From the NCBI GenBank assembly GCA_016219325.1, contig JACRNH010000024.1, forward strand, positions 1,789 to 65,788: a stretch of 64,000 bases of DNA. The letters are read 5' to 3'. Shown here in pieces: positions 1 through 60,073 of the stretch. The notes under the pieces were generated by a model, which ran no database searches, was not told the origin of the DNA, and saw only the letters and a program-made list of their open reading frames with translations. The first letter of the stretch is position 1, and each line of letters starts with the position of its first letter. The position numbers and the translations under genes were made by a program. This stretch comes from Candidatus Collierbacteria bacterium (GTDB lineage: Bacteria > Patescibacteriota > Microgenomatia > UBA1400 > JACPES01).

Positions 1-2034
1 CAATCAGTTACTGTTTTAGATCCGGCGGCTGGAACGTTGACTTTTCCGGCTGAAGCAATCCGATTAGCAATCGAGGAATATAAAAGAAAATATGGCGATG
101 GAGGGGTGAACGGGTTAATTAAAAACCATATACTGAAGAATTTCTATGCCTTTGAGTTAATGATGGCTTCATATGCTATTGGGCATCTGAAAATCGGTTT
201 TGTTTTGAATGAATATGGCTATAAATTATCTGATAACGAAAGATTCAATCTGTTTTTGACAAACACGTTAGATTTTAATAAAGAAGATCCAAATGTACTT
301 CCCGGGATTATTGAGCGTGAAATTGCAAAAGAGTCAATAGAAGCACTTAGGGTAAAAGAGGAAATTCCCGTTATGGTGATTATGGGTAATCCCCCATATT
401 CTGTGAGTTCTACGAATGTAATAAAAGAAGGTTCCGAATTTAAGAAGTTTTATGAAACTTACAAGGAAAATGTTAGAAAAGAGGAGAGGAATATCCAACC
501 GCTTTCTGATGACTACATCAAATTTATTGCTTTCGCTCATTGGAAAATAAAACAGGCTGGTAAGGGTATTGTTGGTATGATTACGAATAATTCATATTTA
601 GATGGGTTGATACATAGGGATATGCGTAAAAAATTACTTGATGATTTTGGCGAAATTTATATTTTAAATTTACATGGCAGTACTAAACGTCAGGAGAAAA
701 CACCCGATGGTAAAAGTGATGAAAATGTATTTGACATTCAACAAGGAGTAAGCATTATTTTGTTAATAAAAAATGAAAGTCAAAAAAGTTTGGTGAAATA
801 TGCAGATATTTGGGGATCAAGAGAATCAAAGTATAATTATTTAAAAAAGAATGATATATACGATACTAGATGGGAAAATATAATATCTCAAGAACCGCAT
901 AATTTTTTCACAATTAAAAATTTCGAGTGGTTCGAACTCTATGAACGTTTTATCTCGCTTGAAAAAATATTCAAACAATTTAATGCAGGTATAGCAACGG
1001 GAAAAGATAATTTACTTGTCAGTTTTAGCAAAGATGATTTGATAAGTAGACTCTCGATAGCCGAGAAATCATTATTCAATATTTCAATGCAAAGTTATAA
1101 AGTGTCGCAAGTCTTGGCCGACAGATTATTTGAACAACTTAATAAGTTAAAGGTTGGCAATAGCGTGATGCCATATAGTTATCGCCCATTTGATTCACGC
1201 TATACCATTTACGATAAACAAATTTTACAAAGGGCAAGAGATATTATCATGGGAAGTTTTTTGAAATCAAATTTGGGACTGGTAACGACAAAACAGCTTT
1301 CAACTGAGGAATTTAGGCACGCATGGGTTACAGAAACGATTTCTGATAGATGCTTAATTTCTCTACAAACGAGAGAAGTTTCATATGTTTTTCCTCTTTA
1401 TCTTTATAATGATTCTAAACAGCAAGATTTATTTGATAGTGAGAAAAAATATCAGAATATACAATGGGAAAATCTACCTATTTCTTGTTCAACTTTGCAG
1501 GGTTTTACTTCAAGAGCGACTGGTAATTTTATTCCGCCAGCAGAACAAATTTTTTATTATATCTATGCAATTCTTTATTCCGATATTTATCGTCAAAAAT
1601 ATAAGGAGTTTTTGAAAATTAATTTTCCGAGAATTCCATTTACCAAAAATTACGAGTTATTTAAGTTATTGGTGGAGTTGGGTGAACAATTAGTTAAATT
1701 GCATCTACTTAAATCGAAGGAGTTAGAGTACCCAATCGCAAAGTATTACGGCGAAGGAGTCGGAAATGTAGAAAAGCTGGAATATGTTGAAGATAGAAAA
1801 CGCGTTTATATAAACAAAACTCAATATTTTGAAGGAATAAAACCGAATCTTTGGAATTATTATATTGGTGGGTATCATGTGATAGACAAATGGCTAAAAG
1901 ATAGAAAGGGGAGATATTTGTCAGCTGAAGATATTCGTCACTATTGCCGAATGGTCACTGCTTTTTCTAGGACAATTGAAGTACAGGAAAGAATTGATAA
2001 ATTGTATTTAAGAGTAGAAAAGAGTTTAAATTAA
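1..2034 (+). CDS. N6-adenine DNA methyltransferase domain of a Type IIG restriction-modification / BREX PglX-like enzyme (5'-truncated by the window edge)
   Basis: The reading frame is open from nt 1. Motif I-like 'VLDPAAGTLTF' lies at nt 16-48 and motif IV 'GNPPYS' at about nt 391-408. A long C-terminal region (WNYYIGGYHVIDKWLKDRKGRYLS) resembles the TaqI-C/MmeI/PglX-type specificity and helper domain. Confidence 0.7.
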   Translation, partial: QSVTVLDPAAGTLTFPAEAIRLAIEEYKRKYGDGGVNGLIKNHILKNFYAFELMMASYAIGHLKIGFVLNEYGYKLSDNERFNLFLTNTLDFNKEDPNVLPGIIEREIAKESIEALRVKEEIPVMVIMGNPPYSVSSTNVIKEGSEFKKFYETYKENVRKEERNIQPLSDDYIKFIAFAHWKIKQAGKGIVGMITNNSYLDGLIHRDMRKKLLDDFGEIYILNLHGSTKRQEKTPDGKSDENVFDIQQGVSIILLIKNESQKSLVKYADIWGSRESKYNYLKKNDIYDTRWENIISQEPHNFFTIKNFEWFELYERFISLEKIFKQFNAGIATGKDNLLVSFSKDDLISRLSIAEKSLFNISMQSYKVSQVLADRLFEQLNKLKVGNSVMPYSYRPFDSRYTIYDKQILQRARDIIMGSFLKSNLGLVTTKQLSTEEFRHAWVTETISDRCLISLQTREVSYVFPLYLYNDSKQQDLFDSEKKYQNIQWENLPISCSTLQGFTSRATGNFIPPAEQIFYYIYAILYSDIYRQKYKEFLKINFPRIPFTKNYELFKLLVELGEQLVKLHLLKSKELEYPIAKYYGEGVGNVEKLEYVEDRKRVYINKTQYFEGIKPNLWNYYIGGYHVIDKWLKDRKGRYLSAEDIRHYCRMVTAFSRTIEVQERIDKLYLRVEKSLN

Positions 2035-2736: not shown

Positions 2737-5700
2737 ATGTTTCGCACTCTACCAACAAGACAGTACTGGGGCAAAACTAATTTGCCCTTACCAGATTTAG
2801 ATTTATTGTCAGTTCAAAAAGAGTCTTATCAACACTTTTTAACTGAAGGAATTTCTTGGGCCCTTTCGGAGGCTTCTCCAATTACCGATCCTTCAAAAAA
2901 AATGTGGCAGTTGATTTTTGGGAAACATCAGTTGGGAAAACCAAAAATTACGGTTGAAGAAGCACTGACAAAAGGCTTGACTTACGATGCGCCATTAACT
3001 GCAGAAGCTACTTTAACTAATATAAAGACTAATGAGACTTTGATAGAAGAAGTCTTTTTGGGGGACATCCCGGTAATGACGGATATTGGTACTTTTGTGA
3101 TTGCCGGAGTAGAGCGCTGTGTTGTTAATCAATTAGTCAGATCTCCTGGTGTGTTTTTTACCAGTGATGTTGACCAACCTTCCGGTCGAAATTTATTCAT
3201 TGCGGAATTAAGGCCGATTAGGGGATCATGGTTGGAATTTAGCGTTAGCCGAAATGATGTGATTACCGTAAAAGTTGATAGAGGAAGGAAAATTCCGGTC
3301 ACTGTATTACTAAAATCTATGGGCTATGTTGCTGATGAGCAGATCACGGGATTATTTAAAGATGTTGATATCGATCCTGACCATCATTATATTTTTAGCA
3401 CCATTAGCAGAGATCAGACAAAAACGAAGGAAGAAGCTCTAGTCGAATTTTATGAAAAAATCAGACCTGGGGAACCGGCTGTTTTAGAAAATGCCAGATC
3501 GCTTTTTTATGAATCTTTCTTTGATCCTAAAAGATATGATATTGGTGAAGTTGGTAGGTATAAATTAAACCGCCGTCTTGGCTTATCTCAGCCATTGACA
3601 CGAGATTATTGGGTATTAACTCCGGACGATTTTATCGCGGTTATTAAAACTTTAATTAAACTCCAAAGGGGGATCGGGGTGGCAGATGACATAGACCATT
3701 TAGCCAATAGAAGAGTTAGAAGGGTTGGAGAATTGGTTCACCAGACTGCTTTTAGAGTTGGTCTATTGAGATTAGAAAGATCAATTTCAGAAAAGATGGC
3801 ATTTGCAAAACCAGGAGAACTTCCAGGTCCGGCTGCATTGGTTAATGCTAGACCTATAATTGCCGTAGTCTCCGAATTTTTTAAGAGGAATCGATTATCT
3901 ACAATATTAGATCAAACCAATCCTCTTTCTGAAATTGATAATTTAAGAAGATTGTCAGTAATGGGGCCAGGTGGAGTAACAAAGGAAAGGGCCAGTTTTT
4001 CAATGAGAGATATAAACTCGAGTCAGTATTCCAGGATTTGTCCGGTTAGATCACCGGAAGGACCAAACATAGGATTGGTCACCTATTTGGCAATTTATGC
4101 CAGAATCAATAAATATGGCTTTATTGAGGCCCCTTATAGAAAAGTCGAAAAAATTACCAAAAATGGTAAAATCAAAATGAAACTAACCAACGAAGTGGTT
4201 TATCTTCAGGCTGACGATGAAGAAAAATATAAGATTACTCATGCCGAAATTCCCATAGATAAACATGGTTGTATTGATGCAGATTGGCTTCCGATCCGCT
4301 ATATGCGTCAATTTACAGAAGGCCCGGTTGAGGAAATTGAATTAGTTGACATAGTTAGTCGTCAAGCGGTGGGCACTTCGGCCAATCTAATTCCTTTTTT
4401 GGCCCATGATGAGGCAAATAGAGCTTTAATGGGAACTCATATGCAATGTCAGGCAGTGCCTTTGGTAAAGACAGAATCTCCTGTTATAGGAACTGGGCTA
4501 GAAGATGTTGTAATTAAGCAGATGAGAAGAGCAATTTATGCAGAAGAAGATGGAGAGATTTTATCTGTTGATGCTTCAGGAGTTGAGTTTAGAGCTAAGA
4601 GTGAAATAAAACATTACACTATTGAGAAATTCAAGCGTTCTTCACAATCAACTTGTTATTCCCAGAAACCAGTTGTTAGGGCTGGCAGCAAAGTTAAGAA
4701 TGGAGATTTATTAATTGATGGTCCGGCTTCAAATAATGGTGAGTTAGCCTTAGGTAAGAATTTAGTAATTGCCTATTCTAATTTTGAAGGTTTGGGATAT
4801 GAAGACGCAATTATTATTTCGGATAAATTAGTTAAGGAAGATTTGCTGACCTCCATACACATAAATGAATATGAGGCCCAATTAATGGATACAAAATTAG
4901 GGCCTGAAGAGTTTACAAAAGATATTCCTAATGTTGGAGAGTCAGAATTAGCCAATCTTGGAGAAGACGGTATTGTAGTGGTCGGAGCTAATGTTAGTCC
5001 AAACGATATTTTGGTTGGCAAGATTGCCCCCAAGGGCGAAACAGAACTAACTGCAGAAGAAAGGTTATTGAGGGCAATATTTGGAGAAAAAGCCAGAGAA
5101 GTCCGTGACACTTCATTAAGAATGCCTCATGGAGAGCAAGGGACTGTTATAGACATTAAAATTTTAGATAGAGAGAAGGAAGATGAGCTAGAACCGGGAG
5201 TTCTTAAGAAGGTTATAGTTAAAGTTGCACAATTGCGTAAAGTGACAGTAGGAGACAAATTGGCTGGACGTCACGGAAATAAAGGCGTTATTAGCAAAGT
5301 CGTTCCTGTCGCCGATATGCCATATTTGTCTGACGGAACAGCAGTAGATATTATTATTAGCCCACTGTCTGTTTTGCAAAGAATGAATGTTGGTCAGTTA
5401 TTAGAAGCGCATTTAGGTTGGGCAGCTAAAATGAAAAATATCAGAATTGCAATTCCGGTTTTCGAATCAATTTCTGAAGATAAAATTTCATCCGAAATGG
5501 AATCTTCAGGTCTTCCTGTTTCAGGAAAAGTCAGATTGATTGACGGAAGGACAGGAGAGCTCTTTAAAGAAGAGACTGTTGTCGGCGTTGCTTACATTAT
5601 GAAATTATCTCATATGGTAGAAGATAAGCTTCATGCTAGGTCAACTGGTCCATACTCTCTAGTTACCCAGCAACCTTTGGGCGGAAAAGCCCAAATGGGA

Positions 5701-10849: not shown

Positions 10850-10885
10850 TGTCATTCCGTGCTTGACACGGAATCTATACAAATA
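10850..10885. repeat. Family-A hairpin repeat (TGTCATTCC-stem-loop-GGAATCTATACAAATA)
   Basis: tgtcattccGTGCTTGACACggaatctatacaaata lies between the convergent genes 10511(+) and 10909(-). Eleven or more related copies occur in the window. Confidence 0.8.
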
Positions 10886-10908
10886 TTTATCTAGATTCTA
10901 GAATTACT

Positions 10909-15380: not shown

Positions 15381-15456
15381 TGTCATTCCCGCGCCCGCCT
15401 GCATCAGCTATGCCGAAAGCATTGCGGGCAGGAAAGCGGGAATCTATATAAAATAA
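15381..15456. repeat. Composite family-A repeat carrying a GC-rich core related to the 19.0/20.1 kb inverted repeats
   Basis: tgtcattccc...cgcctgcatcagctatgccgaaagcattgcgggcagg...gggaatctatataaaataa. Confidence 0.7.
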
Positions 15457-16133: not shown

Positions 16134-17975
16134 ATGAAATTAACCGCAGATAGTATTATCAAAACCGCGATTAAAAAAACTCTTAACGATCTCGGATTTC
16201 CGGAAGTTCAAATATCTCTCGAGCACCCTGCCGTCGAATCCCACGGCGACTGGAGCTCAAATATCGCCCTAACTTTATTTCCTCTTACAAAATCCCCTAA
16301 ATTCCCTAATCTCCCTAATCTCCCTGATCTTTCCTCCCCCCGCCAAATAGCCGAAACCATCGTCGTCAGACTTTCTACTGATAAAGAACTTAAAAAGGTT
16401 GTTGCCAAAATCGACGTCGCCGGTCCGGGATTTATAAATTTTCATTTAACTCAAAATACACTCTTTGATGAATTAGAAAGAATTGATAAAAAGAAGAATA
16501 AATTTGGCAGCGGTGATTCGTTGAGCGGGAAAAAGATCATGGTAGAGTTTACCGACCCGAATCCGTTTAAGGAGTTTCACATTGGACATCTGTTTAGTAA
16601 TGTTGTTGGAGAAGCGCTGTCTCGATTACTTGCGTCGCAGGGCGCAATAGTAAAGCGAGCCAATTACCAAGGTGATGTAGGAATGCATGTTGCCAAGGCG
16701 GTTTGGGGGATGATACAAAAAATCAAAAATCAAAAATCAAAGATCAAAGAATTAGAAAAACTTCCGTTAAATGAGAAAGCTAAGTTTTTGGGAAAAGCTT
16801 ACGCGTTTGGGGCGACAAAATTCGAGGAAGACGAGAAAGTAAAAAAGGAAATAACTGAACTCAATAAGAAAATTTATGATAAATATCCAGAGGTAATGGA
16901 ACTATATAGCATAGGTCGGAAGTGGAGTCTGGATTATTTTGAAACCATTTACAAGCGGCTCGGGACGAAATTCGACTATTACTACTTTGAATCAGTTGCC
17001 GGGGAAGTGGGTTTGGAATTTGTCAGAGAAAATCTCAAGAAGGGAATTTTCCAAGAAAGCCAAGGGGCGATTGTTTTCCCCGGAGAAAAACATGGGCTGC
17101 ACACCCGTGTGTTTGTTAATTCCCTCGGTCTTCCGACCTATGAAGCTAAAGACTTAGGACTTGCCCCGACAAAATACAAAGATTTTAAATATGATGAATC
17201 GGTCATTGTGACCGGTAATGAAATTAATGAATATTTCAAAGTTCTGATTACGGCTCTAAAACAGATTAACCCGGGACTAGGCAAGAAAGCCCATCATATT
17301 TCTCATGGAATGGTGCGACTGCCGGAAGGCAAAATGAGCAGCAGAACAGGAAAAGTTTTGACGGGAGAATGGCTTCTTGACGAAGTGAAAAAAACAATAT
17401 TAAAACTGATGGCTAAAGCAGATTCTCCATTTTCTGTTTCAGACCGGGAAGAAATTGCGGAGAAAATTGCGGTTGGATCTATCAAATACGCGTTATTGAA
17501 GGCAGGAACCGGCCATGATGTCATTTTTGATTTCGAAAAATCTATTTCGGTCGACGGCAACTCCGGCCCTTACCTCCAATATACCTACGCTAGATGTCAA
17601 AGCGTTCTTGCGAAGGCAACTATTCCCGACACCGAACGCCTAAACCAACAACTAATAACTAATAACCAATTCAATCCAGAGGAATTGTCTATTCTCCGTT
17701 TCATCTATCGTTTCCCCGAAGTGGTCCAAACCGCCGCCACCCAATATTCGCCCAACTTAATCTGCACTTTTCTTTACGAACTGGCCCAGCGGTTTAATAC
17801 TTTCTACAATAAACATAGGATATTAGAAAGTAATGAGGAGAAAGTAATGAGTAATGAACAAAAAACAAAAAACAAAGAGCAAATTCAATTTAGGCTGTCA
17901 TTAACGTCAGCCGTTTCTCAAGTACTCAAAAACGGTCTAAACCTCCTTGGTATTCAAGCCCCGGAAAAGATGTGA
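16134..17975 (+). CDS. argS: Arginyl-tRNA synthetase
   Basis: The HIGH region (PNPFKEFHIGH), a KMSSR-like motif and a DALR-type C-terminal domain (QYTYARCQSV) are present. Two repeat-derived in-frame insertions (NLPNLPDLSSP; SNEEKVMSNEQKTKNKEQ) are also present. Confidence 0.9.
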   Translation: MKLTADSIIKTAIKKTLNDLGFPEVQISLEHPAVESHGDWSSNIALTLFPLTKSPKFPNLPNLPDLSSPRQIAETIVVRLSTDKELKKVVAKIDVAGPGFINFHLTQNTLFDELERIDKKKNKFGSGDSLSGKKIMVEFTDPNPFKEFHIGHLFSNVVGEALSRLLASQGAIVKRANYQGDVGMHVAKAVWGMIQKIKNQKSKIKELEKLPLNEKAKFLGKAYAFGATKFEEDEKVKKEITELNKKIYDKYPEVMELYSIGRKWSLDYFETIYKRLGTKFDYYYFESVAGEVGLEFVRENLKKGIFQESQGAIVFPGEKHGLHTRVFVNSLGLPTYEAKDLGLAPTKYKDFKYDESVIVTGNEINEYFKVLITALKQINPGLGKKAHHISHGMVRLPEGKMSSRTGKVLTGEWLLDEVKKTILKLMAKADSPFSVSDREEIAEKIAVGSIKYALLKAGTGHDVIFDFEKSISVDGNSGPYLQYTYARCQSVLAKATIPDTERLNQQLITNNQFNPEELSILRFIYRFPEVVQTAATQYSPNLICTFLYELAQRFNTFYNKHRILESNEEKVMSNEQKTKNKEQIQFRLSLTSAVSQVLKNGLNLLGIQAPEKM

Positions 17976-18984: not shown

Positions 18985-19038
18985 ATCTTAAGCTTGATAG
19001 TTGGCCGTTTACAAAAAATGTCGAACTTCATTTGGTTA

Positions 19039-19132
19039 GCTCGGCCTTCGGCCTCGCTTACTCCGGCGCGGCGCCCCCCGCCTGCTATCGCTTTGCGAAG
19101 CATTGCGGGCAGGCCACCCGCCGCGCCTCCGC
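19039..19132. repeat. GC-rich inverted repeat, left copy
   Basis: The 62-nt core gcgcggcgccccccgcctgctatcgctttgcgaagcattgcgggcaggccacccgccgcgc is identical (as reverse complement) to 20098-20195. Confidence 0.85.
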
Positions 19133-19220
19133 TATTTTTTGCGCGCGCGATTTTCTCGCCCTTCGGGCGATGACGAAGAAACTTTAATAATTCTCATTAA
19201 CTTAATAATGTACAAATATA

Positions 19221-19562
19221 TTACCAAGGAATTTTGTGTTCGACTTCTTCTCTGATTGAATGAATTTTTTCGCGTTGTGCTTGAGAGAGTTGGTACCAAC
19301 CACTAAAGTATGCGCGAGATAAAATTTTTATGAATTTTTCCATTTTCCCATCCTTATCGTCTCCCTCTTCATTTCCCAATTCCGTTATTGTTATACCTGC
19401 TTTTTCAAGTCTACTTATTCGTTTTTTTATTCCCTCAAGAAGTAATATTTGTTCTTGAAGTAAAGCTATTGTTTTTTGTAGTTCTTTCAATTCTTTATTT
19501 TTGCCGTGAAGATAAATAATATACACGATCGCAAAAATAAGTAAAAATGATGATCTGTACAT
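19221..19562 (-). CDS. Hypothetical membrane-anchored coiled-coil protein
   Basis: It is 113 aa with an N-terminal TM and a coiled coil. It lies inside the inverted-repeat-flanked segment. Confidence 0.45.
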   Translation of the reverse strand: MYRSSFLLIFAIVYIIYLHGKNKELKELQKTIALLQEQILLLEGIKKRISRLEKAGITITELGNEEGDDKDGKMEKFIKILSRAYFSGWYQLSQAQREKIHSIREEVEHKIPW

Positions 19563-19566
19563 AGAA

Positions 19567-19845
19567 TTATTCTAACAAGTTTTCATCTATGCCCGTTTTG
19601 ATACTTCCAATAACTTTATATACTTGGAAGTTTAACCTTTGACTATATTGAGGGCTTCCTACAGACATAGTATTATATGAAAATTTTTCAGAGTAAATTA
19701 TTTTATAAATTTTATCATCTTTAACGACCTCAAAGATAACAAGTAAATCTCTTCTTTCCTTTCTGGGAATTGTAAGCACCACTAAATCTCCAACACAGAT
19801 TTTTTGTTTGTTTTGATCGTAAAGCTTTGTAAATTCTTTTACCAT
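19567..19845 (-). CDS. Hypothetical small protein (weak PemK/MazF-like or SH3-like resemblance)
   Basis: It is 92 aa. 'VGDLVVLTIPRKERRDLLVIFEV' vaguely resembles the MazF N-terminus. A 17-bp palindrome CGACATctattATGTCG sits just upstream of its start. Confidence 0.4.
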   Translation of the reverse strand: MVKEFTKLYDQNKQKICVGDLVVLTIPRKERRDLLVIFEVVKDDKIYKIIYSEKFSYNTMSVGSPQYSQRLNFQVYKVIGSIKTGIDENLLE

Positions 19846-20033
19846 ACGACATCTATTATGTCGCTTTTCAAAACTTATTTTTATTTGTTATTTAACTCAT
19901 AAATTAGTATATTATAATTTGACTTAACTTTTATCGATTGCTATTTTTAATAGCGTATTCGAACAATTCAAGCAATCGGGTTGAGTCTACAGGATACGCC
20001 ATTTGAGATTTATAAAAAGTTCTTTAAAATTTT

Positions 20034-20195
20034 TTGCGTCAAGCTCAGCTTGACAATTGCCCCGCTAAGCGGGGCGTTTTTGTTCGAGTCGACTTTTTCG
20101 GAAGCGCGGCGGGTGGCCTGCCCGCAATGCTTCGCAAAGCGATAGCAGGCGGGGGGCGCCGCGCTCACCTTGCGAGCCGAGCGGAGCGAGGCGAG
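20034..20195. repeat. GC-rich inverted repeat, right copy (extended, with an internal terminator-like hairpin)
   Basis: Reverse-complement copy of 19039-19132. It also carries the palindrome GTCAAGCTcAGCTTGAC and ccccgcttagcgggg + TTTTT at 20060-20083. Confidence 0.85.
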
Positions 20196-20241
20196 CTAAC
20201 ACGATTCTTTGAAATGAGTTCGAATTTTGTCAAAAACGTTC

Positions 20242-20514
20242 CTAAAGGTATTTATATTCTAATTCTTTTAGGATTTCTTTAAGTTGAATTTTAAGCTCTC
20301 CTCGTCCATTCCCACCCTTTAAGTATTTTTCCCGTCGTTTGGCATCTAGCTCTTTCTCATATGCTTCATAATAAATCAGTTTAAGTGGCCGTCTATGTTT
20401 GGTCGCCTTAACAAATCCGTTGCTATGTGCCTTAAAACGAGATTTCAAGTCTGGAGAAAATCCGGTATATAACTCTTTGTCCTTTTCTGAAAAAAGAATA
20501 TAGACGTAATACAT
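20242..20514 (-). CDS. GIY-YIG nuclease-superfamily protein (YhbQ/UPF0213-like)
   Basis: MYYVYILFSEKDKELYTGFSPDLKSRFKAHSNG...RREKYLK is the canonical GIY-YIG pattern. Confidence 0.8.
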   Translation of the reverse strand: MYYVYILFSEKDKELYTGFSPDLKSRFKAHSNGFVKATKHRRPLKLIYYEAYEKELDAKRREKYLKGGNGRGELKIQLKEILKELEYKYL

Positions 20515-20582: not shown

Positions 20583-20657
20583 TGGTGACCCCACCGGGAG
20601 TCGAACCCGAGTTTACAGGATGAGAACCTGCCGTCCTAGCCATTAGACGATGGGGCC
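20583..20657 (-). tRNA. tRNA-Glu (anticodon CUC), CCA encoded
   Basis: Manual fold: acceptor GGCCCCA/TGGGGTC, D-arm GTCT-AATGGCTA-GGAC, anticodon loop TTCTCAT, T-loop TTCGACT. The sequence has the tRNA-Glu-like CCCCaTCGTCTAatGGCtAGGAC signature. Confidence 0.8.
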
Positions 20658-20736: not shown

Positions 20737-20807
20737 TGCGGGATCTGCTAATGGTAGGCAAGCTGGCTCTGAACCAGTAAATCTAGGTTCGATTCCTAGT
20801 CCCGCAA
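20737..20807 (+). tRNA. tRNA-Gln (anticodon CUG), U1-A72, no encoded CCA
   Basis: Manual fold: acceptor TGCGGGA/TCCCGCA, anticodon stem GCTGG/CCAGT, loop CTCTGAA, T-arm CTAGG-TTCGATT-CCTAG. Confidence 0.8.
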
Positions 20808-20820
20808 CAAATCTTTTATT

Positions 20821-22265: not shown

Positions 22266-22967
22266 TTGTTGTTTAAAATAGAATCACTTATGCCCAAATT
22301 TCCATCCCGTCTTTTTCCTTTAATTCTTCTCTTCCTTCTTTTTCCCTCTTTAATTCTCAACGCGTTTTTACTCCAAAGAACAAATAAGGCAGAAGAGGGG
22401 ATTAAGGTTTTAGGCGTAATTGACGGAGACACTCTGGTTTTGGACGGAAAAGTCAGATTAAGGCTAAGAAGCGTTGACGCTCCGGAGCTGGATTTTTGCG
22501 GCGGCCCCGAAGCCAAGCAGGAATTGGAACGGCTAGTTTCAGAAAAAAAAGTGGCGGTAAAGGAACAAATTATTGATCAGAGAGGCCGGCCGATGGGTTT
22601 AGTTTATGCAGATGGGAAATCGGTGAATGAGCAGATATTGACTTCCGGGTGGGGACGGTTCCATAGCGATATTACGGATGAGAAGGAAAATTTAAAAGCA
22701 GCCTACGAAAAAGCTAAAGAACAAAAATTAGGGATTTGGGGTCCAAAATGTCAACAAACTGAAAATACGGATAATCCTAAATGTAATATCAAAGGTAATA
22801 TCGATAAAAATTCCGACCGTAGAAATTATTATTTCCCCGGATGCGCTCAATACAACTTTACGATTGTGGAGAAAGATATGGGAGAGGGTTGGTTTTGCTC
22901 CGAAAAAGAAGCTCAAAAAGCCGGTTACACCCGTTCCAAAACTTGCTTCACCCCTTATGTCCCTTAA
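22266..22967 (+). CDS. Secreted thermonuclease (SNase-like) with a C-terminal Cys-rich domain
   Basis: It has a signal peptide. 'GVIDGDTLVLDGKVRLRLRSVDAPE' is the SNase active-site region. The C-terminus is CNIKGNID...PGCAQY...C. Confidence 0.7.
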   Translation: MLFKIESLMPKFPSRLFPLILLFLLFPSLILNAFLLQRTNKAEEGIKVLGVIDGDTLVLDGKVRLRLRSVDAPELDFCGGPEAKQELERLVSEKKVAVKEQIIDQRGRPMGLVYADGKSVNEQILTSGWGRFHSDITDEKENLKAAYEKAKEQKLGIWGPKCQQTENTDNPKCNIKGNIDKNSDRRNYYFPGCAQYNFTIVEKDMGEGWFCSEKEAQKAGYTRSKTCFTPYVP

Positions 22968-22999
22968 TCTCTTAAATTCCCCTAATCCCCCTTATCTCC

Positions 23000-23821
23000 C
23001 TAATCTCTCTTACTTATTTTTATAAACCTTTTCCTTCCAAATTGATCTTTTATGATTTTTGCCCTGAAGTTTTTCGGAAGTTCCAAATCTTTAATTCTAT
23101 GTGTCTCGTCAATCTCCAAAAGTAAAACACCTTTAGATTTTAGCCTTGCCTGCGATTGAGCAATTAATTTATTGATCAATTTTAACCCATCCGGCCTGCC
23201 GTCGAGAGCTAAACGCGGTTCAAAATCTTTAACGGACTTCGGTAGTTTTGAAATTCTGGCAGAGGGAATATATGGAAGGTTGGCAATAATTAGATCAAAC
23301 CTTAAGTCTTTTGGGTAGCTATCAAACAAATCGCTTTCTAACCACACTAGCCACAAAAGGCCAGGCCTTTTTAAAAAGGCCTGGCCTTTTGTGGCTCTTA
23401 TGAGTCTTGAAATGTTTTCTTCCGCCACTTTCAACGCTTCTTCGGAAATATCAGACATATATATAGTAGGTTGAATTTCTAATTTAACTAATTCCAGATA
23501 TAGAGTAATCCCAATGCATCCGCATCCAGTTCCAAGGTCGGCGATGATTGGGGAGTAAGGAGTAGAAAGTAAAGAGCAAGAGCTAAGAATTTTTATGGCT
23601 TCGTCAATGAGCTGTTCGGTCTCAATCCGCGGGATTAAAACGTGTTTATTAACCTTAAAATCCCGACCGTAAAACTCCGCCCATCCGGTAATATATTCCA
23701 CCGGCATTTCACCATACTTTTTTAATTGTGAAGTTTGTCCTGCTAAGCAGGATCCTGCTCCGCAGGACGAAACTTTCCATTTCGCTAGCCAATTTATCTC
23801 CCTAGGGGAAAATTGCCTCAT
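23000..23821 (-). CDS. prmC: Release-factor glutamine N5-methyltransferase (HemK/PrmC)
   Basis: DLGTGCGCIGITL (motif I) and IIANLPY (the NPPY variant) are present. It carries a 15-aa in-frame insertion encoded by a perfect 44-nt palindrome. Confidence 0.85.
   Translation of the reverse strand: MRQFSPREINWLAKWKVSSCGAGSCLAGQTSQLKKYGEMPVEYITGWAEFYGRDFKVNKHVLIPRIETEQLIDEAIKILSSCSLLSTPYSPIIADLGTGCGCIGITLYLELVKLEIQPTIYMSDISEEALKVAEENISRLIRATKGQAFLKRPGLLWLVWLESDLFDSYPKDLRFDLIIANLPYIPSARISKLPKSVKDFEPRLALDGRPDGLKLINKLIAQSQARLKSKGVLLLEIDETHRIKDLELPKNFRAKIIKDQFGRKRFIKISKRD
23351..23394. repeat. Family-B palindromic element inserted in frame in prmC
   Basis: ccacaaaaggccaggcctttttaaaaaggcctggccttttgtgg (a perfect palindrome) encodes ..KGQAFLKRPGLLW... 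Confidence 0.85.
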
Positions 23822-26103: not shown

Positions 26104-26982
26104 ATTCTAGTCACAGGCTCTTCCGGTTTTGCCGGCCGCCATTTAACCAAGTATCTTCAGGTCAAAGGCCATACTGCCTTGATTCCGGAAATTGATTTAT
26201 TAAATGCCACCGAAACGGAAGTAGTCATTTCAAAGCAAAAATTCGATGCGGTTGTCCATTTGGCGGCAATGGCTGAAGTCGGAACAAGCATGATTTCTCC
26301 GGCTAAAATTCTGCGGAATAATATTTTCGCCCAATTGAATTTATTGGAAGCCCTAAGACGGAGAAATTCTAAAGCTAGAGTTTTAATAATCTGTAGCGCC
26401 GACGAATATGGCGGAAGTCAGGAAGGGTCCATTGATGAAAATGCTCAGTTTATGCCGGCCAGTCCTTACGCTGTTTCCAAGATAGCCCAGGATTTTTTAG
26501 GTCTGCAATATTTTTTATCTTACGGATTAAACATTATCCGGTTAAGGCCGTTTAATCACATCGGCGAAGGTCAGCGGATTGGTTTCGTGGTCCCGGATTT
26601 TGTTAAGCAGATCGTGGAGATAGAGAAAAGCGGTCAATCAGGCGAAATAATAGTCGGCAATTTAGAGGCTGTCCGCGACTTTACCGATGTTCTTGATATG
26701 GTTTCGGCTTATGAATTGGCTTTGATAAAAGGCCAGGCAGGTGAAGTTTATAACGTTGGTTCCGGCAAGGGGGTTAAAATTTCTTATTTATTAAACCAGC
26801 TTGTCAAAATGTCTAAGGCTAAAATAAAAATTACGGTTGATGAATCAAGATTTCGTCCCGGGGAACCTTCGCAACTAATATGTAATTCGGAGAAATTTAT
26901 GAAAGCCACCGGCTGGAAACCTGAAATCCCTTTGGAAAAAACTTTAGAAAGAGTGCTAGAATGGTGGAGGAAGACTAGGTAA
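26098..26982 (+). CDS. NAD-dependent epimerase/dehydratase (SDR), likely GDP-4-keto-6-deoxy-D-mannose reductase (Rmd-like)
   Basis: VTGSSGFAGRHL is a Rossmann motif and YAVSK is the catalytic YxxxK. It sits adjacent to gmd. Confidence 0.55.
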   Translation: MNILVTGSSGFAGRHLTKYLQVKGHTALIPEIDLLNATETEVVISKQKFDAVVHLAAMAEVGTSMISPAKILRNNIFAQLNLLEALRRRNSKARVLIICSADEYGGSQEGSIDENAQFMPASPYAVSKIAQDFLGLQYFLSYGLNIIRLRPFNHIGEGQRIGFVVPDFVKQIVEIEKSGQSGEIIVGNLEAVRDFTDVLDMVSAYELALIKGQAGEVYNVGSGKGVKISYLLNQLVKMSKAKIKITVDESRFRPGEPSQLICNSEKFMKATGWKPEIPLEKTLERVLEWWRKTR

Positions 26983-27057
26983 GAAAATAATGAGTAAGAA
27001 GTAATGAGTAATGAATTTTTTGATCATTATTTCTTACTTTCTACTCATTACTCATTA
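26981..27057. repeat. Family-D 'GTAATGA' palindrome at a cistron junction
   Basis: aatgagtaagaagtaatgagtaatgaa ... tcattatttcttactttctactcattactcatta. It supplies the stop of the upstream gene and a spurious N-terminal extension of gmd. Confidence 0.8.
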
Positions 27058-28089
27058 ATGTCACGAAAAGCATTTATCACCGGCATTACCGGCCAGGACG
27101 GAAGTTATTTAGCGGAATTTCTTTTGGATAAGGGTTATGAAGTTTATGGCTTGATCCGCCGGACTTCAACGGTATCAACTGAACGAGTCTCTCATCTTTT
27201 GCATAAAATTTCAGTAGTCGACGGCGACTTAACCGATCAGCATTCGTTAACGCAGGCCATCCGCGACGTCCAGCCGGATGAAATTTATAATTTGGCGGCT
27301 CAATCTTTTGTTCCGACTTCGTTTAAGCAGCCGGTTTTAACCAGCGAAGCTACGGCTTTAGGGGTTACCAGAATGTTGGAGGCTATTCGCATCGCCAAGC
27401 CGGATACTAAATTTTATCAGGCGAGTTCTTCGGAAATGTTCGGTAAAGCGGTTGAAGTTCCGCAGTCGGAAACAACTCCATTTTATCCCCGTAGTCCTTA
27501 TGGTGTAGCCAAGGTCTACGGTCATTGGATCACGGTTAATTACCGGGAGTCATATAATCTTTTTGCCTGTTCAGGGATACTTTTTAATCATGAATCACCC
27601 CGCCGCGGTTTGACTTTTATTACCCGTAAAATCTCCATGAGCGTGGCTTGTCTGGCTACGGATTTGAAATGGGTGCCTCAAAATGAGATTGGCGAACCTT
27701 TAGTCGGACAGGATAAAAAAATCGCCATTGGCAATCTTGAATCTAAACGCGATTGGGGATTTGCCGGAGATTATGTTGAGGCGATGTGGTTGATGCTGCA
27801 GCAGTTAAAACCGGATGATTTTGTGATCGGAACAGGGGAAACCCATTCTGTCAGAGATTTTCTGGAGGCGGCTTTTGAGGTAGTTCAAATTAAAGATTGG
27901 GAAAAGCATATTAAAGTTGACAAGCGCTTTTACCGTCCGGCTGAAGTAGATCTATTGATTGCCGATCCTTCCAAGGCAAACCGGAAACTAAATTGGAAGC
28001 CAAAAACAAGTTTTAAGGATTTAGTAAAAATGATGGTGGAATATGATATAAAATTTGTGAAAAGGCAAATCGAAGGTAATCAAAAATGA
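27004..28089 (+). CDS. gmd: GDP-mannose 4,6-dehydratase
   Basis: [32 protein letters not shown] is near-canonical Gmd. The true start is probably the internal ATG at about 27058 (MSRKAF...). Confidence 0.9.
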
Positions 28090-32221: not shown

Positions 32222-33239
<1,018 letters not shown>

Positions 33240-33264: not shown

Positions 33265-34814
33265 TTTCCATCGCCGTACTTTTATCGCTGACCTTGCCGT
33301 CAATTATTTCCGGTAATTTTACTTTTGTTTTTGATATGGGCCGGGATCAACTCTGGACCAGAAATATGGTGGAACTGAAACGTCCGACCCTAATTGGACC
33401 GTGGGGATCAATCGCCGGAGTCTTTTTCGGCCCACTTTGGTTTTATCTTTTATCAATTCCTTATTTGATTTTTAACGGCGATCCCCGGGCAGCGGTTTTA
33501 CTTCCATTAGTGTCTAATTTGGCGGCAATGATTATCGGTTGGAAAATCCTGCGTAAATATAATCATCCTCTGGCGGCGGATTTTTTCGCGGTTCTATTTG
33601 GCGTTTCTCCCGCGATTGTTGGTTTATCGTCTTTTGCCTTCCACGCTAATTTGTTACCTTTAGCGACATTGTTATTTTTCATTGGTCTGTTTAACTTTCA
33701 CCAACAACCAACAACCAATAACCAACAACTTCTGACAGGCCTCCCCCTTTCCGCCCTCATGGCCAGTTTGTCATTCCATCTTGAGCCCGTCGCCGGAGTG
33801 ATGCTGACAGGATTCTTAACATTGTTTATTCTTGGACGGACCCACTTGCTTAAACTTCGCGTTTTAGTTCTTGCGTTTTTTCTGTTTTCCCTACCTTTCC
33901 TCCCTCAACTCATCTTTGAATTCCGTCACGACTTTATTCAAACAAAATCGTTAACTGCTTATTTTCAGGGGAAGAATCCCAGTTTAATGGGCGAACTGGC
34001 TTTAGACCAAAGAGTAACTGAAAGAATTACCAAATTAGCCGGAACCTTGGCTCATTCTCTTTTTCCGACGGAATTTACATCCGGAAAGTGGATAATATTC
34101 TCGGCATTTATCTTATTGACTGTCGTTTTTCTCAAGAATAAAACTAAGCCTAATGACGATTTTTCCCATTACTCATTACTGTTTACTCTTTACTTCTTAC
34201 TCTTTCATTATTTCGCCTACACCTTTTTATTTCCGGCCGAACTGAAAAATTGGTATTTGTCCGGTTTTATTCCGTTATATATTCTGTCAATGTCGCTGAT
34301 ACTTGAAAATATAAAATTAAAATCAAGGGCGCATGGAGCTTTAATAATTATTTTTACGGTGGTAATCGTTTCAATCAGCATTAACCCCGTCGATAGATTT
34401 TTTGAGATAAAGAAACCAATGCCTCCGGAAACTCTTGGCGCCCAAATGGAAGTAGTCGATTGGATTTATACAAATGCCGTTGCCAAATCCCAACCGTTTG
34501 CGGTCTATACTTATACCCCTCCGGTTTATGATTATCATTATGAATATCTTTTATGGTGGAGGGGAACGAGAAAATATAATTTATTACCGGCTGAATTTAG
34601 TTATCGTCCCGGAGAAACATCTTATTCTCAATATAAAACGGAATTTATGTCAAAACAGTGGAAACCGGAAGACGCCAAACTTATATATTTAATTATTGAG
34701 CCGGATAGTTTGGAAAAAAGATTAACCGGCTGGATGGGAAATTTTCCAAAAGCTACGCAATCGGAAACAAAAGAATTTCCTTCTAAAGTCAAAGTATTGT
34801 TTGGGTCTATATAA
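33240..34814 (+). CDS. Polytopic membrane protein, GT-C-like (paralog family 2)
   Basis: GNFTFVFDMGRDQLW...GPWGSIAGVFFGPLWFYL is shared with three other ORFs. Confidence 0.5.
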
Positions 34815-36303: not shown

Positions 36304-37583
36304 TAACAGCGCTTTTTTTTCTGTTAGCTGCGCTAATTAAGAATTTTACTCAAATTCCGGCCTCTCTTTTTGAGTCGGATCAGGAGACTTTGACAATTGC
36401 CGCCAAGAATATTCTAGGCGGACATTTTAGCCTGATTGGCGCTCCGACCAGCGTCGGGGGAATGTTTATCGCGCCTTTATATAATTATTTTGTCGCCATT
36501 TGGTTATGGATTTTCCGCGGCAGCCCTTATACGGTATCAATTTTAGGAGCAATATGGCTGTCGTTATTGATTCCGGCTATTTATCTGGTAGGAAAAAAAA
36601 TCTATTCTGGGTCAGTAGGAGTTTTCGCGGCGATTATTGCTCTATTGAGCATAAACTTTGTTAACTTTGATCAGGTTCCGCCATTATTATTTCCCCTGCC
36701 CCTGCTTACCGTAATTTTAATTTATGTTTTGGAAACTGAGCCGGCCACTAAATTCAGGAAAGCCATTATCGGCGCGGTCATAGGATTAACTTTAAATCTT
36801 CATTTTTCCGGAGTGTTTTTAGCCCCCTTACTGCTGATTTCCGGAATTTGGGGAAGTTTGGCATTGTTGATTTTGGTTTCGCCGTTAATTTTGTTTGATA
36901 TCCGCCATCAGTGGTGGAACATAGGTCACGCGGTGGAATTTTTAAGTAAAAGCGGAGCGGTAACTTCCCTGTGGTTTCGCCTGGATACTTTTCTGGTATC
37001 GTTCGCGGTTATTTTCGAAGCCGCAGCCGGAGCTGGAATGTTGGTAAAAACCGCGATGGGAGCTGTAATCGTTTGGGGATTTCTGTTCACAAGCCGCAAT
37101 TGGCCAAAAGTAATTTTGGGATTAACGTTTATCTTTTTCATGATTTATGGCGGGAGTCTTATTCCTTATTATGGAATCATTTCCTGGGTGCCGTTTATTT
37201 TGATTGCCGGATGCGGTTTGGAGAGACTGTGGGCGAAAGGGAATTTTATTAAATCAATAATTGTTTTGACGGGAGTGTTTTTCTTAATAATGAATTTTAA
37301 GGCCTTAAGTAACCGTTCGGCGAGTAGGGGGTTGGACAAAAAAATTGCCGCCCTGGAGTTTATTAAAAATGATTTTATAGGCCGGGAAATGTATCTTTCA
37401 ATAAATATGGATCCGGCGGCAAACTTCGGATTTACATATTTAACCGGATATGTTGGGATTAAATCCACTCCGTTTCCGGTTAAGCCTACTTATACTTTGC
37501 TTGCTCCTTACGATTGGTTGAAAGTTAATCCTGATAAGTCGTTTGGGGATTTCGGGGTGTTGATGTCTAGAAGTAATGAGTAA
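36300..37583 (+). CDS. Polytopic membrane protein, GT-C-like (paralog family 2)
   Basis: LIGAPTSVGGMFIAPLYNYFVAIWLW. Confidence 0.5.
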   Translation: MITALFFLLAALIKNFTQIPASLFESDQETLTIAAKNILGGHFSLIGAPTSVGGMFIAPLYNYFVAIWLWIFRGSPYTVSILGAIWLSLLIPAIYLVGKKIYSGSVGVFAAIIALLSINFVNFDQVPPLLFPLPLLTVILIYVLETEPATKFRKAIIGAVIGLTLNLHFSGVFLAPLLLISGIWGSLALLILVSPLILFDIRHQWWNIGHAVEFLSKSGAVTSLWFRLDTFLVSFAVIFEAAAGAGMLVKTAMGAVIVWGFLFTSRNWPKVILGLTFIFFMIYGGSLIPYYGIISWVPFILIAGCGLERLWAKGNFIKSIIVLTGVFFLIMNFKALSNRSASRGLDKKIAALEFIKNDFIGREMYLSINMDPAANFGFTYLTGYVGIKSTPFPVKPTYTLLAPYDWLKVNPDKSFGDFGVLMSRSNE

Positions 37584-37651
37584 TGAGTAGAAAGTAATGA
37601 GTAATGAATCGTAGGGTTCATTATTTATTACTTTCTATTTTCTACTCATTG
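37570..37651. repeat. Family-D 'GTAATGA' palindrome at a cistron junction
   Basis: agaagtaatgagtaatgagtagaaagtaatgagtaatgaa...ttcattatttattactttctattttctactcatt. Confidence 0.8.
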
Positions 37652-39118: not shown

Positions 39119-40282
39119 AATCATAAATAAGACGGCAGTAGTTAAAAAATGGCTGGATAGAAGCGGATTAAGACGTAACGGGAGATAAGAGTCTTTGAAA
39201 TAAAAGATAAGCAGAAAATAAGCCAATCCGGAAATTGCCAAATCCAGCATTTTTTTAGTTTTAATCAATTTTGCGACTAGAATTACCCAAAGAGGAATTA
39301 GAAAGACGTAATGGTGTTGCCACACAAACACCGGTAAAAATAACATTGTTATTACAGTTAAATTCCAAAAAGAGATAAAATCTTTTATTCCTTTTGTCAC
39401 TCCTGTCATTCCGGGCTTGACCCGGAATCTATACAAATAATCATTTAAAAAGAAGACCCCCAGGATCCCGCTAATCCCCAATCTTGTTATCGAATTCAAT
39501 TCCCCAAAAATTCCGAATTTCCCCAATAAGGCCGTAACCGATTGATTCATATAGCTTCCATTGAGAGTGGTACGAGTATTTTCGTTCATTAATTGCGGAA
39601 TGGTTTTAAAATAATAATAATAGGTTAAATCCCAACCGAATACGGAAATTCCGGCTATGGTTAATATTCCAATCGTAACCATAAACCACCAAACTGTTCT
39701 CCATCTTTTTCTAAATAAGAAATAAATTAGCAATGGGGCTGGCGTTAATTTTAAAATAGCCGCTAGCCCAAATAATATCCCTGATAAAGCCTCAAAAGGC
39801 CGGACCTTGCTTCGCAAAGTCCGGCCTTTATAAATTTCACAAAAATAATAACTTCCCACGATCAATCCTAAAATAATTAAATTAATTTGTCCCAGCGCCA
39901 GAGTTAATTTAGATGGGTAAGTCTTTAGAGCTAAAACAAAAATTAACCAAAAAATGGATGGGGATAATTTAATTTTTAACAATTCAAAAATCATTTTTAT
40001 GGTGAGCAGTAAGGAAAAAGCCGAAATTGCGGTAAATAAAAATTCGGCCGTATTTTCGGGAATTAAAGTCAACGGAATAAAAAATAGGGTAGCTGCGGGA
40101 GAATAATTGAATCGATCAAAAAACCTTAATTGATACGGGTTAGCCCCACTGAGAGCCGATTTAGTTCCGTCTAAATAAACACTAAAGTCGTTGAGACGGA
40201 AGTTCATGATTAATTGCCCAATGGGAATTACTTGTCTCCAAAGAATTATTGCTACAATCAAGAGTATTAATTTATTAACCAT
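39038..40282 (-). CDS. Polytopic membrane protein (GT-C-like)
   Basis: Multi-TM protein. The start was chosen at the ATG whose codon overlaps the divergent YfhO start (shared CATG at 40280-40283). It contains a family-B insertion. Confidence 0.45.
   Translation of the reverse strand: MVNKLILLIVAIILWRQVIPIGQLIMNFRLNDFSVYLDGTKSALSGANPYQLRFFDRFNYSPAATLFFIPLTLIPENTAEFLFTAISAFSLLLTIKMIFELLKIKLSPSIFWLIFVLALKTYPSKLTLALGQINLIILGLIVGSYYFCEIYKGRTLRSKVRPFEALSGILFGLAAILKLTPAPLLIYFLFRKRWRTVWWFMVTIGILTIAGISVFGWDLTYYYYFKTIPQLMNENTRTTLNGSYMNQSVTALLGKFGIFGELNSITRLGISGILGVFFLNDYLYRFRVKPGMTGVTKGIKDFISFWNLTVITMLFLPVFVWQHHYVFLIPLWVILVAKLIKTKKMLDLAISGLAYFLLIFYFKDSYLPLRLNPLLSSHFLTTAVLFMILNSYAQRPDQQHVSDSEHILKNNSRS
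39404..39439. repeat. Family-A hairpin repeat (inside the minus-strand membrane-protein gene region)
   Basis: tgtcattccGGGCTTGACCCggaatctatacaaata. Confidence 0.75.
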
Positions 40283-43183: not shown

Positions 43184-43275
43184 TGAGTAAGAAGTAAGGA
43201 GTAATGAGTAATGAAAAGCACAAAAATAAATATCCAATCATTATTTTCTACTCATTATTTCTTACTCATTATTTT
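43180..43275. repeat. Family-D 'GTAATGA' palindrome at a cistron junction
   Basis: gtaatgagtaagaagtaaggagtaatgagtaatgaa...tcattattttctactcattatttcttactcattatt. Confidence 0.8.
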
Positions 43276-49243: not shown

Positions 49244-49250
49244 TTTTTCT

Positions 49251-60066: not shown

Positions 60067-60073
60067 ATAGACT

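Follow-up and report, generated by a model that had tools for sequence, protein, structure and literature searches.

What kind of element is delimited by the GC-rich inverted repeats that enclose two small genes in the genome of a Candidatus Collierbacteria bacterium? The locus lies at about 19003-20243 of a contiguous stretch of 64,000 nucleotides (hereafter the window, meaning the whole stretch analysed), and a preliminary description made from the sequence alone had taken it either for a small non-autonomous mobile cassette with repeats resembling those of miniature inverted-repeat transposable elements (MITEs) or for an invertible or structured regulatory module. The reading that most reasonably fits our observations, to which we give a probability of roughly 0.55, is that the locus is an orphan, non-autonomous and recombinase-less member of a family of cassettes in Microgenomates (Patescibacteria) that is associated with a large serine recombinase (LSR), and that the repeats are the recombination and boundary modules of this family. 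The earlier idea of a small non-autonomous mobile cassette comes close to the comparative data; its MITE-like label names the wrong class, since the family is linked to an LSR and no DDE transposase was found.

Boundary modules and the cassette family

The inverted repeats are real. Two arms of 66 nt (19066-19131 and 20099-20164) are 98% complementary, and a 62-nt core, exact at 19065-19126 on the plus strand and with one mismatch at 20104-20165 on the minus strand, occurs nowhere else in the window and was matched in 0 of 100 shuffled windows. The repeat length of about 95 bp given in the preliminary description holds for the full module and not for the identity, which spans 66 nt; outside the core the arms have in common only GTTAGCTCG and a diverged small hairpin. 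Each arm folds into a GC-rich hairpin with a nested inner hairpin in its loop, and the conserved module reaches outward to 19003 on the left and 20243 on the right, beyond the limits first drawn. On the right copy (copy B) the core is followed outward by a small GC hairpin and then by an outer module, M, which has only a degenerate counterpart on the left copy (copy A).

Nested GC mini-hairpins of several types, e.g. CCCGCCTGC..GCGGGCAGG and TTTACACTGAGCTTGCCGAATGTGCCC, lie both in core-hairpin loops and in unrelated hairpin families (in the window at 19077-19113, 20117-20153 and 15391-15441, and elsewhere in L099, L105, L108, L020 and L104, the L numbers denoting the metagenome loci described below), and could represent a small element in its own right that inserts into the loops of hairpins. 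What had been described as a third, partial copy of the repeat at 15381-15456 is merely such a nested inner hairpin within a different hairpin family and not a boundary module. The repeat arms gave no meaningful match to the covariance models of Rfam 15 at E values up to 10, where only tRNAs reach the gathering score, and as ARAGORN gives just two tRNAs we discarded the possibility that the arms are a known RNA gene (SRP, 6S, RNase P, tmRNA or a ribozyme).

A search of related genomes, as the preliminary description had advised, found a 36-mer of the core exactly in one Shapirobacteria and one Roizmanbacteria genome, with conservation that reaches outward to M (GTGAACGTTTTnnAnnAAATTCGAACnnATTTCAA) and inward to the tail TATTTTTTGCGCGCGCGATTTT and a hairpin. 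The architecture of copy A recurs in L001, L002 and many metagenome loci, and M itself (GTGAACGTTTT..AAATTCGAAC) is present in at least 120 metagenome contigs and in none of the viral contigs scanned. M is a 36-bp imperfect palindrome centred on TTCGAA, and an end module consists of M on the outside, a region of GC-rich hairpins (region C) and an inner tail. Two functions considered for M were dropped: a sigma-70 promoter (copy B reads TTGACA-18-AAGAAT, but the -10 part varies among M variants) and a true tRNA 3' half, for which M is 4 nt too long, lacks T-stem pairing and misfits the geometry of the T-arm and acceptor. It is possible that M mimics a tRNA 3' half.

Among the matches listed, 19 loci carry more than one M, in 14 convergent pairs spaced 1.0-2.5 kb apart and 5 same-strand pairs, and the sole divergent adjacency falls between two neighbouring cassettes in L065; for opposite-strand pairs this bias of 14 convergent to 1 divergent has a binomial p of 0.001. 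The genes enclosed are of different kinds, coding for an ABC transporter, an EamA transporter together with a racemase, MFS and small membrane proteins and a JAB-like protein, and none of them is a transposase gene. Within a pair the two M-C stretches have a median identity of 0.98, against 0.68 between loci. All of the pairs compared by eye, 7 of the 14, join one end of a first type (T1) to one of a second (T2), distinguished by their inner tails, and the motif maps fit this rule wherever both tails were detected. The pair in the window does the same, with T1 on copy A and T2 on copy B. The repeats are therefore far from unique to this locus, being joined by at least 120 contigs with M, while the content of the slot differs between relatives and both of the enclosed open reading frames (ORFs) have homologues, as set out below.

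Origin of the inner tails

A T1 end continues from the core hairpin into TCCGTTATTTTTTGCGCGCGCGATTTT and a hairpin, and a T2 end into TCCG-AAAAAGTCGGCTCGAAC (motif P'), a hairpin h2 and GAAAAACGCAAAAATTTTAAAGAAC (motif R). Moving outward from T2, 18 of the 33 ends show a conserved unit of 130 nt, U, and beyond it a divergently oriented gene for a 508-aa protein, LSR1, whose Resolvase, Recombinase and Zn_ribbon_recom domains identify it as a large serine recombinase. LSR1 was found at 80-94% identity in about 25 of the fetched loci and belongs to a family that is very large in public data. Uncultured groundwater bacteria, as in the Hainich and Rifle-type samples, carry such loci. Inverted U copies lie on both sides of the LSR1 gene, and the one downstream abuts the CCA end of a tRNA gene, which may be that for Leu, Glu, Lys, Arg or Met.

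The tails themselves correspond to parts of this recombinase gene. Read as its reverse complement, the T1 tail gives the LSR1 codons ..CALQAQKIARAKNN (..KIARAKNN), P' encodes the LSR1 residues KKVGSNFF ten codons beyond that stretch, and R is a motif just upstream of the LSR1 start codon. At the protein level ..KIARAKNN..KKVGSNFF.. is kept in LSR1 homologues down to 62% identity, and the LSR1 ORF remains open through P-O-P'-U to end antisense inside the tRNA T-arm (..SISKIVTPxGFEP; L027 11994-12203, proteins P0130-P0244). This conservation of the C-terminus, together with a reading frame that runs into the tRNA antisense, indicates that P, P' and U are genuine LSR1 3' sequence. Judged by sequence, T1 tails copy one half of the LSR1 3' end and T2 tails the other, and the C-terminus of LSR1 would overlap its presumed attachment junction.

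Two further recombinases extend this pattern. LSR2, a protein of 513 aa and 25% identical to LSR1, ends in L009 and L010 with ..VNVFEKIRTYFK*, and those codons, the last 14, are M; the M of the window matches LSR2 C-terminal codons 501-512. P' and the start of U (AAAAAGTCGGCTC/GAACTTCTTTTT) form a site homologous to M, and the degenerate M of copy A resembles both M and this P'-U site. LSR3, in L042, represents a third family, 45% identical to LSR1. As side observations, two ORFs lie downstream of the LSR2-M-C-T1 arrangement in L009: one of 311 aa (213-1148, minus strand), and one at 24-317 on the plus strand for a small membrane protein (..GFVKNKTIEKANHFKP..) that is found as cargo in L055, L110 and L115.

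Arrangements and junctions

Motif maps of all loci give a canonical order, +M +C -P (cargo) -R -h2 -P' -C -M, followed by -U +R LSR1 +P +O +P' +U and then a minus-strand tRNA. Read on the plus strand, the window has copy A (T1), ORF2, ORF1, an RNA motif that we call S (see below), a reversed T2 tail, copy B, the minus-strand GIY-YIG gene and the minus-strand tRNA-Glu gene, and so follows the canonical order as far as the tRNA, except that GIY-YIG stands in for the U-LSR1-U unit. The tRNA-Glu gene matches in side and strand the minus-strand tRNA that closes canonical loci. The window hence possesses M and the hairpins in inverted orientation, both tail types and the tRNA, and does not possess LSR1 with U; as no LSR1 lies beside its T2 end, we class it as an orphan member.

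Several loci depart from this order. In type II (L003 and L004) the sequence is M C P' h2 R, an HTH_17 gene, ORF1, ORF2, then P O P' U and tRNA-Leu; in type III a tRNA is followed by reversed U, R, cargo, P, C' and M'; in L114 LSR1 itself ends in P, C' and M'; and in L023 and L081 the T1 end lies beside U-LSR1, the opposite of the canonical order. Types II and III (and IV) can be derived from the canonical or the inverted order by deletion between direct repeats. The pair of ORF1 and ORF2 (88% and 80% amino acid identity to the window's) occupies another neighbourhood in L003 and L004, where it is followed by a remnant of the LSR1 C-terminus, U and a tRNA cluster that includes tRNA-Leu. A 301-aa protein with an excisionase-type HTH_17 domain is encoded there (L003 3990-4895, minus strand) between the T2 tail and ORF1, the place taken by S in the window. 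This protein is a candidate directionality factor or regulator; being seen solely in L003 and L004, it was rejected as a general component of the cassettes.

Junction variants bear on where the modules might recombine. In L049 (2468-2690) and L080 (4037-4260) a glycosyltransferase gene is truncated to its 5' part and joined, within the core-hairpin loop, to ..ACCCGCCGCGCTTCCG-P', which looks like recombination into a secondary site that truncated the host gene. A comparable fusion in L121 involves a fragment of U. These fusions suggest crossovers in or near the core loop. From such variants the candidate crossover cores would be the core-hairpin loop and the TCGA-centred sites of M and P'; the ends that carry them are inverted, not direct.

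The slot that follows the orthologous 304-aa gene differs among four Collierbacteria, which amounts to a presence/absence polymorphism at an orthologous site. The window has ORF1 and ORF2 between the inverted repeats; L130 and L131 have a T1 tail, a 439-aa gene and an R/hairpin tail near-identical to that of the window, without M-C; L128 and L129 have a T1 tail and a 273-aa gene; and L132 and L133 have a solo M-C module without cargo directly after the stop codon, followed by tRNA-Glu.

The S motif

A nominally non-coding stretch of 250 nt beside ORF1 contains S, overlooked in the preliminary description, an RNA motif of about 100 nt with three helices (P1, P2 and P3, helix names distinct from the DNA motifs above) in pseudoknot order, which follows most T2 tails. 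With a covariance model we found 49 copies, spread over 48 loci. To measure covariation we used MAFFT alignments made without fitting to the structure: across 24 base pairs, 91.9% of positions are paired and 18 pairs have changed on both sides, with a covariation score of 0.537 as compared to 0.185 in shuffled alignments (reached by 0 of 500) and at most 0.175 when partners are slid. Helix P1 alone is 91.5% paired and scores 0.455, against 0.115 in shuffles. Of ten representatives nine fold far better than shuffled sequences (z -3.3 to -6.2); the copy in the window folds weakly on the strand tested. The strand of S, antisense to the direction from R to cargo, folds better in 32 of 33 sequences and has G-U pairs in a ratio of 150 to 52, and the R-to-cargo strand was rejected on this folding energy and G-U content. 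S has no match in Rfam 15 at E values up to 10. It was also considered as a small ORF or a riboswitch, and both were dropped as the peptides are not conserved and the downstream genes are varied.

The position of S links it to the recombinases. S is preceded, at a distance of 6-8 nt, by a conserved -10-like box, T(G)GTATA(G/T)T. In L009 (S at 3745-3847, minus strand) it lies immediately before the LSR2 start codon and in L042 (838-943, plus strand) immediately before that of LSR3, and in 12 loci it is found 308-404 nt upstream of LSR1 on the same strand. Where S and an LSR occur together, S precedes the LSR on its own strand in 14 of 16 cases and points the opposite way in 2, including L023. 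From its position, S appears to be a recombinase leader RNA that the recombinase-less cassettes have retained. This covarying structure outside Rfam, placed at the start codon in two or more LSR families, is a candidate for control of a serine recombinase at the RNA level. In the cassettes the reverse complement of R comes after S, and one may speculate that it pairs with the R motif of the LSR1 leader.

Model and alternatives

We propose a model for the cassette family in which site-specific recombination by a serine recombinase at the end modules would build, exchange and move the cassettes, with the crossover in the core-hairpin loop or close to it. Membership of the family, its architecture, the association with an LSR, the variability of the slot and the structure of the S RNA are observed; that the LSR acts on the modules, where the crossover lies and how recombination proceeds are the parts of this model that we infer. 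The copy in the window would move only with an LSR supplied in trans, and would otherwise be a fossil. Excision and integration, in the form of cassette exchange, is slightly favoured over inversion. Integration is favoured by the circular permutation of the tails (P' ... P), by junctions at half a core and by a slot whose content varies, and inversion by sites that are inverted and homogenised and by the occurrence of S in either orientation relative to LSR1.

A number of observations weigh against this model. The inverted end modules are unlike the simple product of an attP x attB reaction, and integration would need a palindromic target. By eye, no target-site duplication or direct att repeats could be seen at the pair ends inspected (e.g. 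L017 and L027), no systematic scan having been made; neither an empty site, in the form of M-C facing its own inverted copy, nor a circle junction with the GC core was found; and inversion isomers numbered 0 among 23 near-identical locus pairs, a comparison of low power. Using LSR1, LSR2 and LSR3 as queries, tblastn found no recombinase in the 64-kb window, and the 120 best LSR1 homologues include no protein from the genome of the window. LSR1 and LSR2 have no close relatives in IMG/VR; this result, with the absence of M from viral contigs, also led us to reject the two as known phage integrases. Solo T1 modules are common and sit like ordinary terminators after stop codons. Finally, all relatives are metagenome contigs, many of them broken at these very repeats.

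The first alternative, which we consider unlikely, is that the cassette is an invertible segment acting as a phase switch. LSR1 or another serine recombinase would flip it between the inverted M-C modules, one orientation placing S, as promoter and leader, upstream of LSR1 and the other uncoupling them, similar to fimS or Hin-type switches, and the window would hold a switch frozen without its recombinase. The inverted sites with their near-identical copies (median 0.98) would suit such a switch, as would the location of LSR1 just outside one repeat, the 12 loci with S upstream of LSR1 on the same strand as opposed to L023 where S points away, and the opposite orientation in L023 and L081, which have the T1 end beside U-LSR1. 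But L023 and L081 are different genomes from the at least 11 canonical loci, and the 23 near-identical pairs yielded no isomer. Inversion alone would also leave unexplained the tails as halves of the LSR1 3' end, the differing cargo of the slot and the occurrence of the same cargo elsewhere. Large serine recombinases, moreover, are usually integrases rather than invertases, which we count against a switch.

The second alternative, the main conventional rival and in our view just as unlikely as the first, is that the modules are structural repeats only, comparable to REP/BIME or Correia elements, which serve as terminators or insulators and were spread by gene conversion or another route; the ORFs would simply read into them and the link to the LSR would be incidental. 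Some features of the window would suit this reading. Directly after the plus-strand 304-aa gene, the GC hairpin of copy A is followed on the plus strand by TCCGCTATTTTTT, a GC hairpin with a T-run as in an intrinsic terminator (our simple scanner omitted it, its loop being longer than 8 nt), and by its sequence the core hairpin with TATTTTTT is an intrinsic-terminator-like element for that upstream gene. A separate plus-strand hairpin at 20058-20086 has the same make-up, and copy B on the minus strand has no T-run after its hairpin. Solo T1 modules directly after stop codons are frequent (e.g. L132), unrelated ORFs terminate inside the T1 tail with ..ENRARKK*, and the window is rich in other families of GC-rich hairpins. 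Against structural repeats alone stand the excess of convergent over divergent pairs (14 to 1), whose T-run terminators face into the cargo and not away from it, and the joining in each pair of a T1 to a T2 end, the latter without a T-run. The U-LSR1-tRNA unit beside 18 of 33 T2 ends, the C-terminal residues of LSR1 that are conserved as protein across P, P' and U, and the junctions inside the core loop likewise speak against it.

A classical MITE or mobile insertion cassette (MIC), moved by cut-and-paste on its terminal inverted repeats by a DDE transposase encoded elsewhere, is very improbable: it would account for the sharp conserved terminus (GT/GAACG...) at both ends, the cargo without a transposase and the many metagenome copies, but no target-site duplication was seen at the pair ends inspected by eye, no DDE transposase occurs in the cargo or flanks of about 130 loci, where the sole recurrent neighbour is a serine recombinase, and the termini are composite modules of 100-150 bp with asymmetric inner tails.

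Should the recombinase-linked cassette model hold, it would describe recombinase-driven exchange of accessory genes at tRNA hotspots in the ultra-small bacteria of the candidate phyla radiation, whose mobile elements are barely described. We put forward only tentatively, and with some doubt, the wider view that Microgenomates possess an undescribed gene-cassette system based on LSRs in which the composite inverted modules around interchangeable accessory genes mimic the 3' ends of the recombinase gene and of a tRNA, S, present with recombinase genes and in recombinase-less cassettes alike, controls or takes part in the expression of the recombinase, and the copy in the window can still be mobilised or titrates the regulator. 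LSRs are sought for genome engineering, and this family would offer members conserved at 80-94%, unusual composite sites and several tRNA targets. By itself the window yields a modest result, namely a decayed, recombinase-less copy with two phage-like genes.

Comparison with known systems

The full-text literature contained no description of this cassette system that we could find, which is weak evidence of novelty. One likeness, drawn from general knowledge, is to the staphylococcal cassette chromosome (SCC; SCCmec and pseudo-SCC, with CcrA/B), which also comprises accessory cassettes tied to LSRs at a conserved landmark, with recombinase-less versions, arrays and a content that differs between relatives. 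Integration of SCC takes place at the 3' end of rlmH, and short direct repeats flank it; the present cassettes have as their landmark a tRNA gene 3' end, of several species, their ends are inverted composite modules of 100-150 bp from recombinase-gene 3' sequence, and the cassettes are much smaller (1-6 kb).

Tn4451 and Tn5397 (TnpX/TndX) and the IS607 family likewise move by a serine recombinase without target-site duplication, and in these elements a circular intermediate puts a promoter beside the recombinase gene, a role that an S leader facing LSR1 would fit. They carry the recombinase internally, however, without long inverted end modules or an association with tRNA genes, and in the present loci we saw no circular junction. 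Invertible switches (Hin/Gin/Cin/Pin, fimS, Bacteroides invertons and shufflons) resemble the cassettes in the inverted repeats around a promoter-bearing segment and the adjacent recombinase gene. Their repeats measure 14-30 bp and their small serine invertases or tyrosine recombinases flip a promoter or alternative gene ends, whereas the present repeats are about 100-150 bp long, the recombinase is an LSR, whole varied genes are enclosed and no isomers were seen.

Integron cassettes have in common with this family a slot adjacent to the recombinase, interchangeable and mostly single-gene cassettes and a structured, covarying element. Integrons use the tyrosine recombinase IntI, an attC folded as single-stranded DNA and co-oriented cassettes without bounding inverted repeats, and neither IntI nor attC is present here. 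MITEs, MICs and Correia and REP elements are also short, non-autonomous intergenic modules of inverted symmetry that can terminate transcription; the present modules differ in their asymmetric T1 and T2 tails, their origin in a recombinase gene and the lack of a DDE transposase and of any target-site duplication seen.

Cargo, neighbouring genes and feature coordinates

The two small minus-strand ORFs of the preliminary description are present (Table 1), as are the palindrome upstream of ORF1, the mini-palindrome GTCAAGCTCAGCTTGAC and the plus-strand terminator hairpin, and searches with Pfam and for tRNAs bear out the adjoining GIY-YIG gene and the divergent tRNA-Glu and tRNA-Gln genes. The MazF/SH3-like features ascribed to ORF1 were not upheld, as its weak signal points instead to phage YopX. 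ORF1 has 8 homologues at 49-100% identity, the identical one being HZB78_05130, and a homologue at 57% lies among phage-like genes. Its AlphaFold model (pLDDT 87.9) has phage YopX proteins as top fold matches (BFVD probability 0.99-1.0, E about 0.01, TM-score 0.4-0.57; also PDB 2p84), and its score against the Pfam family YopX (PF09643), 13.5 bits with an E value of 0.075, is below the gathering cut-off of 22.4. We term ORF1 YopX-like only, a distant resemblance seen in the predicted fold, and do not assign it to PF09643. A tie between its phage context and LSR2 was rejected, the two having no genes in common. ORF2 has only faint family matches (e.g. the Rz-like spanin phrog_739, E 0.007), and a copy 80% identical follows the ORF1 homologue in L003 and L004. 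PADLOC found no defence-system match for ORF1, ORF2 or the GIY-YIG gene.

Table 1. Features of the cassette locus and its surroundings, in window coordinates
Feature	Position	Strand	Basis or remark
Nested inner hairpin, separate copy CCCGCCTGC..GCGGGCAGG	15391-15441	+	in loop of other hairpin family
Left boundary module (copy A, T1 type)	19003-19175	+	sequence, repeat search, fold, motif coordinates
Copy A, degenerate M-like site GGCCGTTTACAAAAAATGTC/GAACTTCATTTG	19003-19034	+	sequence
Copy A, small GC hairpin	19035-19057	+	fold
Copy A, core hairpin (nested inner hairpin 19077-19113)	19065-19128	+	repeat and fold
Copy A, T1 tail: TCCGCTATTTTTTGCGCGCGCGATTTT and hairpin CTCGCCCTTCGGGCGA	19129-19175	+	sequence, motif coordinates
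ORF2, 113 aa, N-terminal transmembrane segment and coiled coil (cargo)	19221-19562	-	ORF list
ORF1, 92 aa, distant phage YopX-like beta-rich protein (cargo)	19567-19845	-	ORF list, homology, fold
Palindrome CGACATctattATGTCG, 6-bp arms CGACAT-ctatt-ATGTCG, directly upstream of ORF1 start	19847-19863		sequence
S motif, pseudoknotted RNA (helices P1, P2, P3)	19904-20011	+	covariance model, 89 bits, E 4e-17, sole window match
-10-like box TATAAT at S	19913-19918	+	sequence
T2 inner tail of copy B	20016-20098	-	sequence, motif coordinates
T2 tail, R motif GACGCAAAAAATTTTAAAGAAC	20019-20040	-	LSR1 5' untranslated region motif
T2 tail, mini-palindrome GTCAAGCTCAGCTTGAC	20038-20054	read on -	motif search
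Terminator in T2 tail region (hairpin 20058-20076, then TTTTTG)	20058-20086	+	terminator scan
T2 tail, P' AAAAAGTCGACTCGAAC	20082-20098	-	LSR1 codons KKVGSNFF
Right boundary module (copy B, T2 type)	20099-20243	-	sequence, repeat search, fold, motif coordinates
Copy B, core hairpin	20104-20165	-	repeat and fold
Copy B, canonical M (reverse complement)	20218-20241	-	touches GIY-YIG stop codon
GIY-YIG (URI-domain) small gene	20242-20514	-	Pfam PF01541, E 7.5e-16
tRNA-Glu(CUC)	20583-20657	-	tRNA search (ARAGORN, Rfam)
tRNA-Gln	20737-20808	+	tRNA search (ARAGORN, Rfam)

The palindrome directly upstream of ORF1 is, from its sequence and place, a possible operator; it is not conserved, L003 having at the equivalent position a direct repeat of GTGATATATTAA, present twice. 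The GIY-YIG gene occupies the place held by the U-flanked LSR1 gene in complete loci. Small GIY-YIG genes recur at the outer edge of M (in the window at 20242-20244/20241; L027 8500-8751; L132 7330-7590 and 7978-8241), and since their number and orientation vary between orthologous Collierbacteria slots they may themselves be mobile.

Other repeats in the window

Further families of GC-rich intergenic hairpins, AAAGGCCTGGCC..GGCCAGGCCTTT, TGTCATTCCGGG..CCCGGAATCTATA and CCCGCGGAGCGGGATCCCGCTCTGCGGGAC, are scattered over the AT-rich window, for example at 38677-38719, 41514-41556, 50174-50216 and 55961-56003, at 10850-10893, 39404-39447 and 49207-49250, and at 38253-38285 and 41296-41328; they are probably terminators. 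Tracts of AT-rich, heptad-like repeats (AGTAATGAGTAATGA / TCATTACTCATTACT) lie at many gene boundaries, often as closely spaced inverted pairs (17812-17883, 26982-27064, 32229-32289, 34160-34227, 37562-37658, 43176-43280, 60015-60077, 62041-62115 and 62920-62974), and one of them extends into the 3' end of the arginyl-tRNA synthetase gene. Finally, tandem repeats of 9-10 nt (CCCTAATCT-like) occur at 16280-16334, 22956-23019 and 51697-51751, with one set inside the arginyl-tRNA synthetase coding region (..KSPKFPNLPNLPDLS..) and another just past an SNase-like gene.

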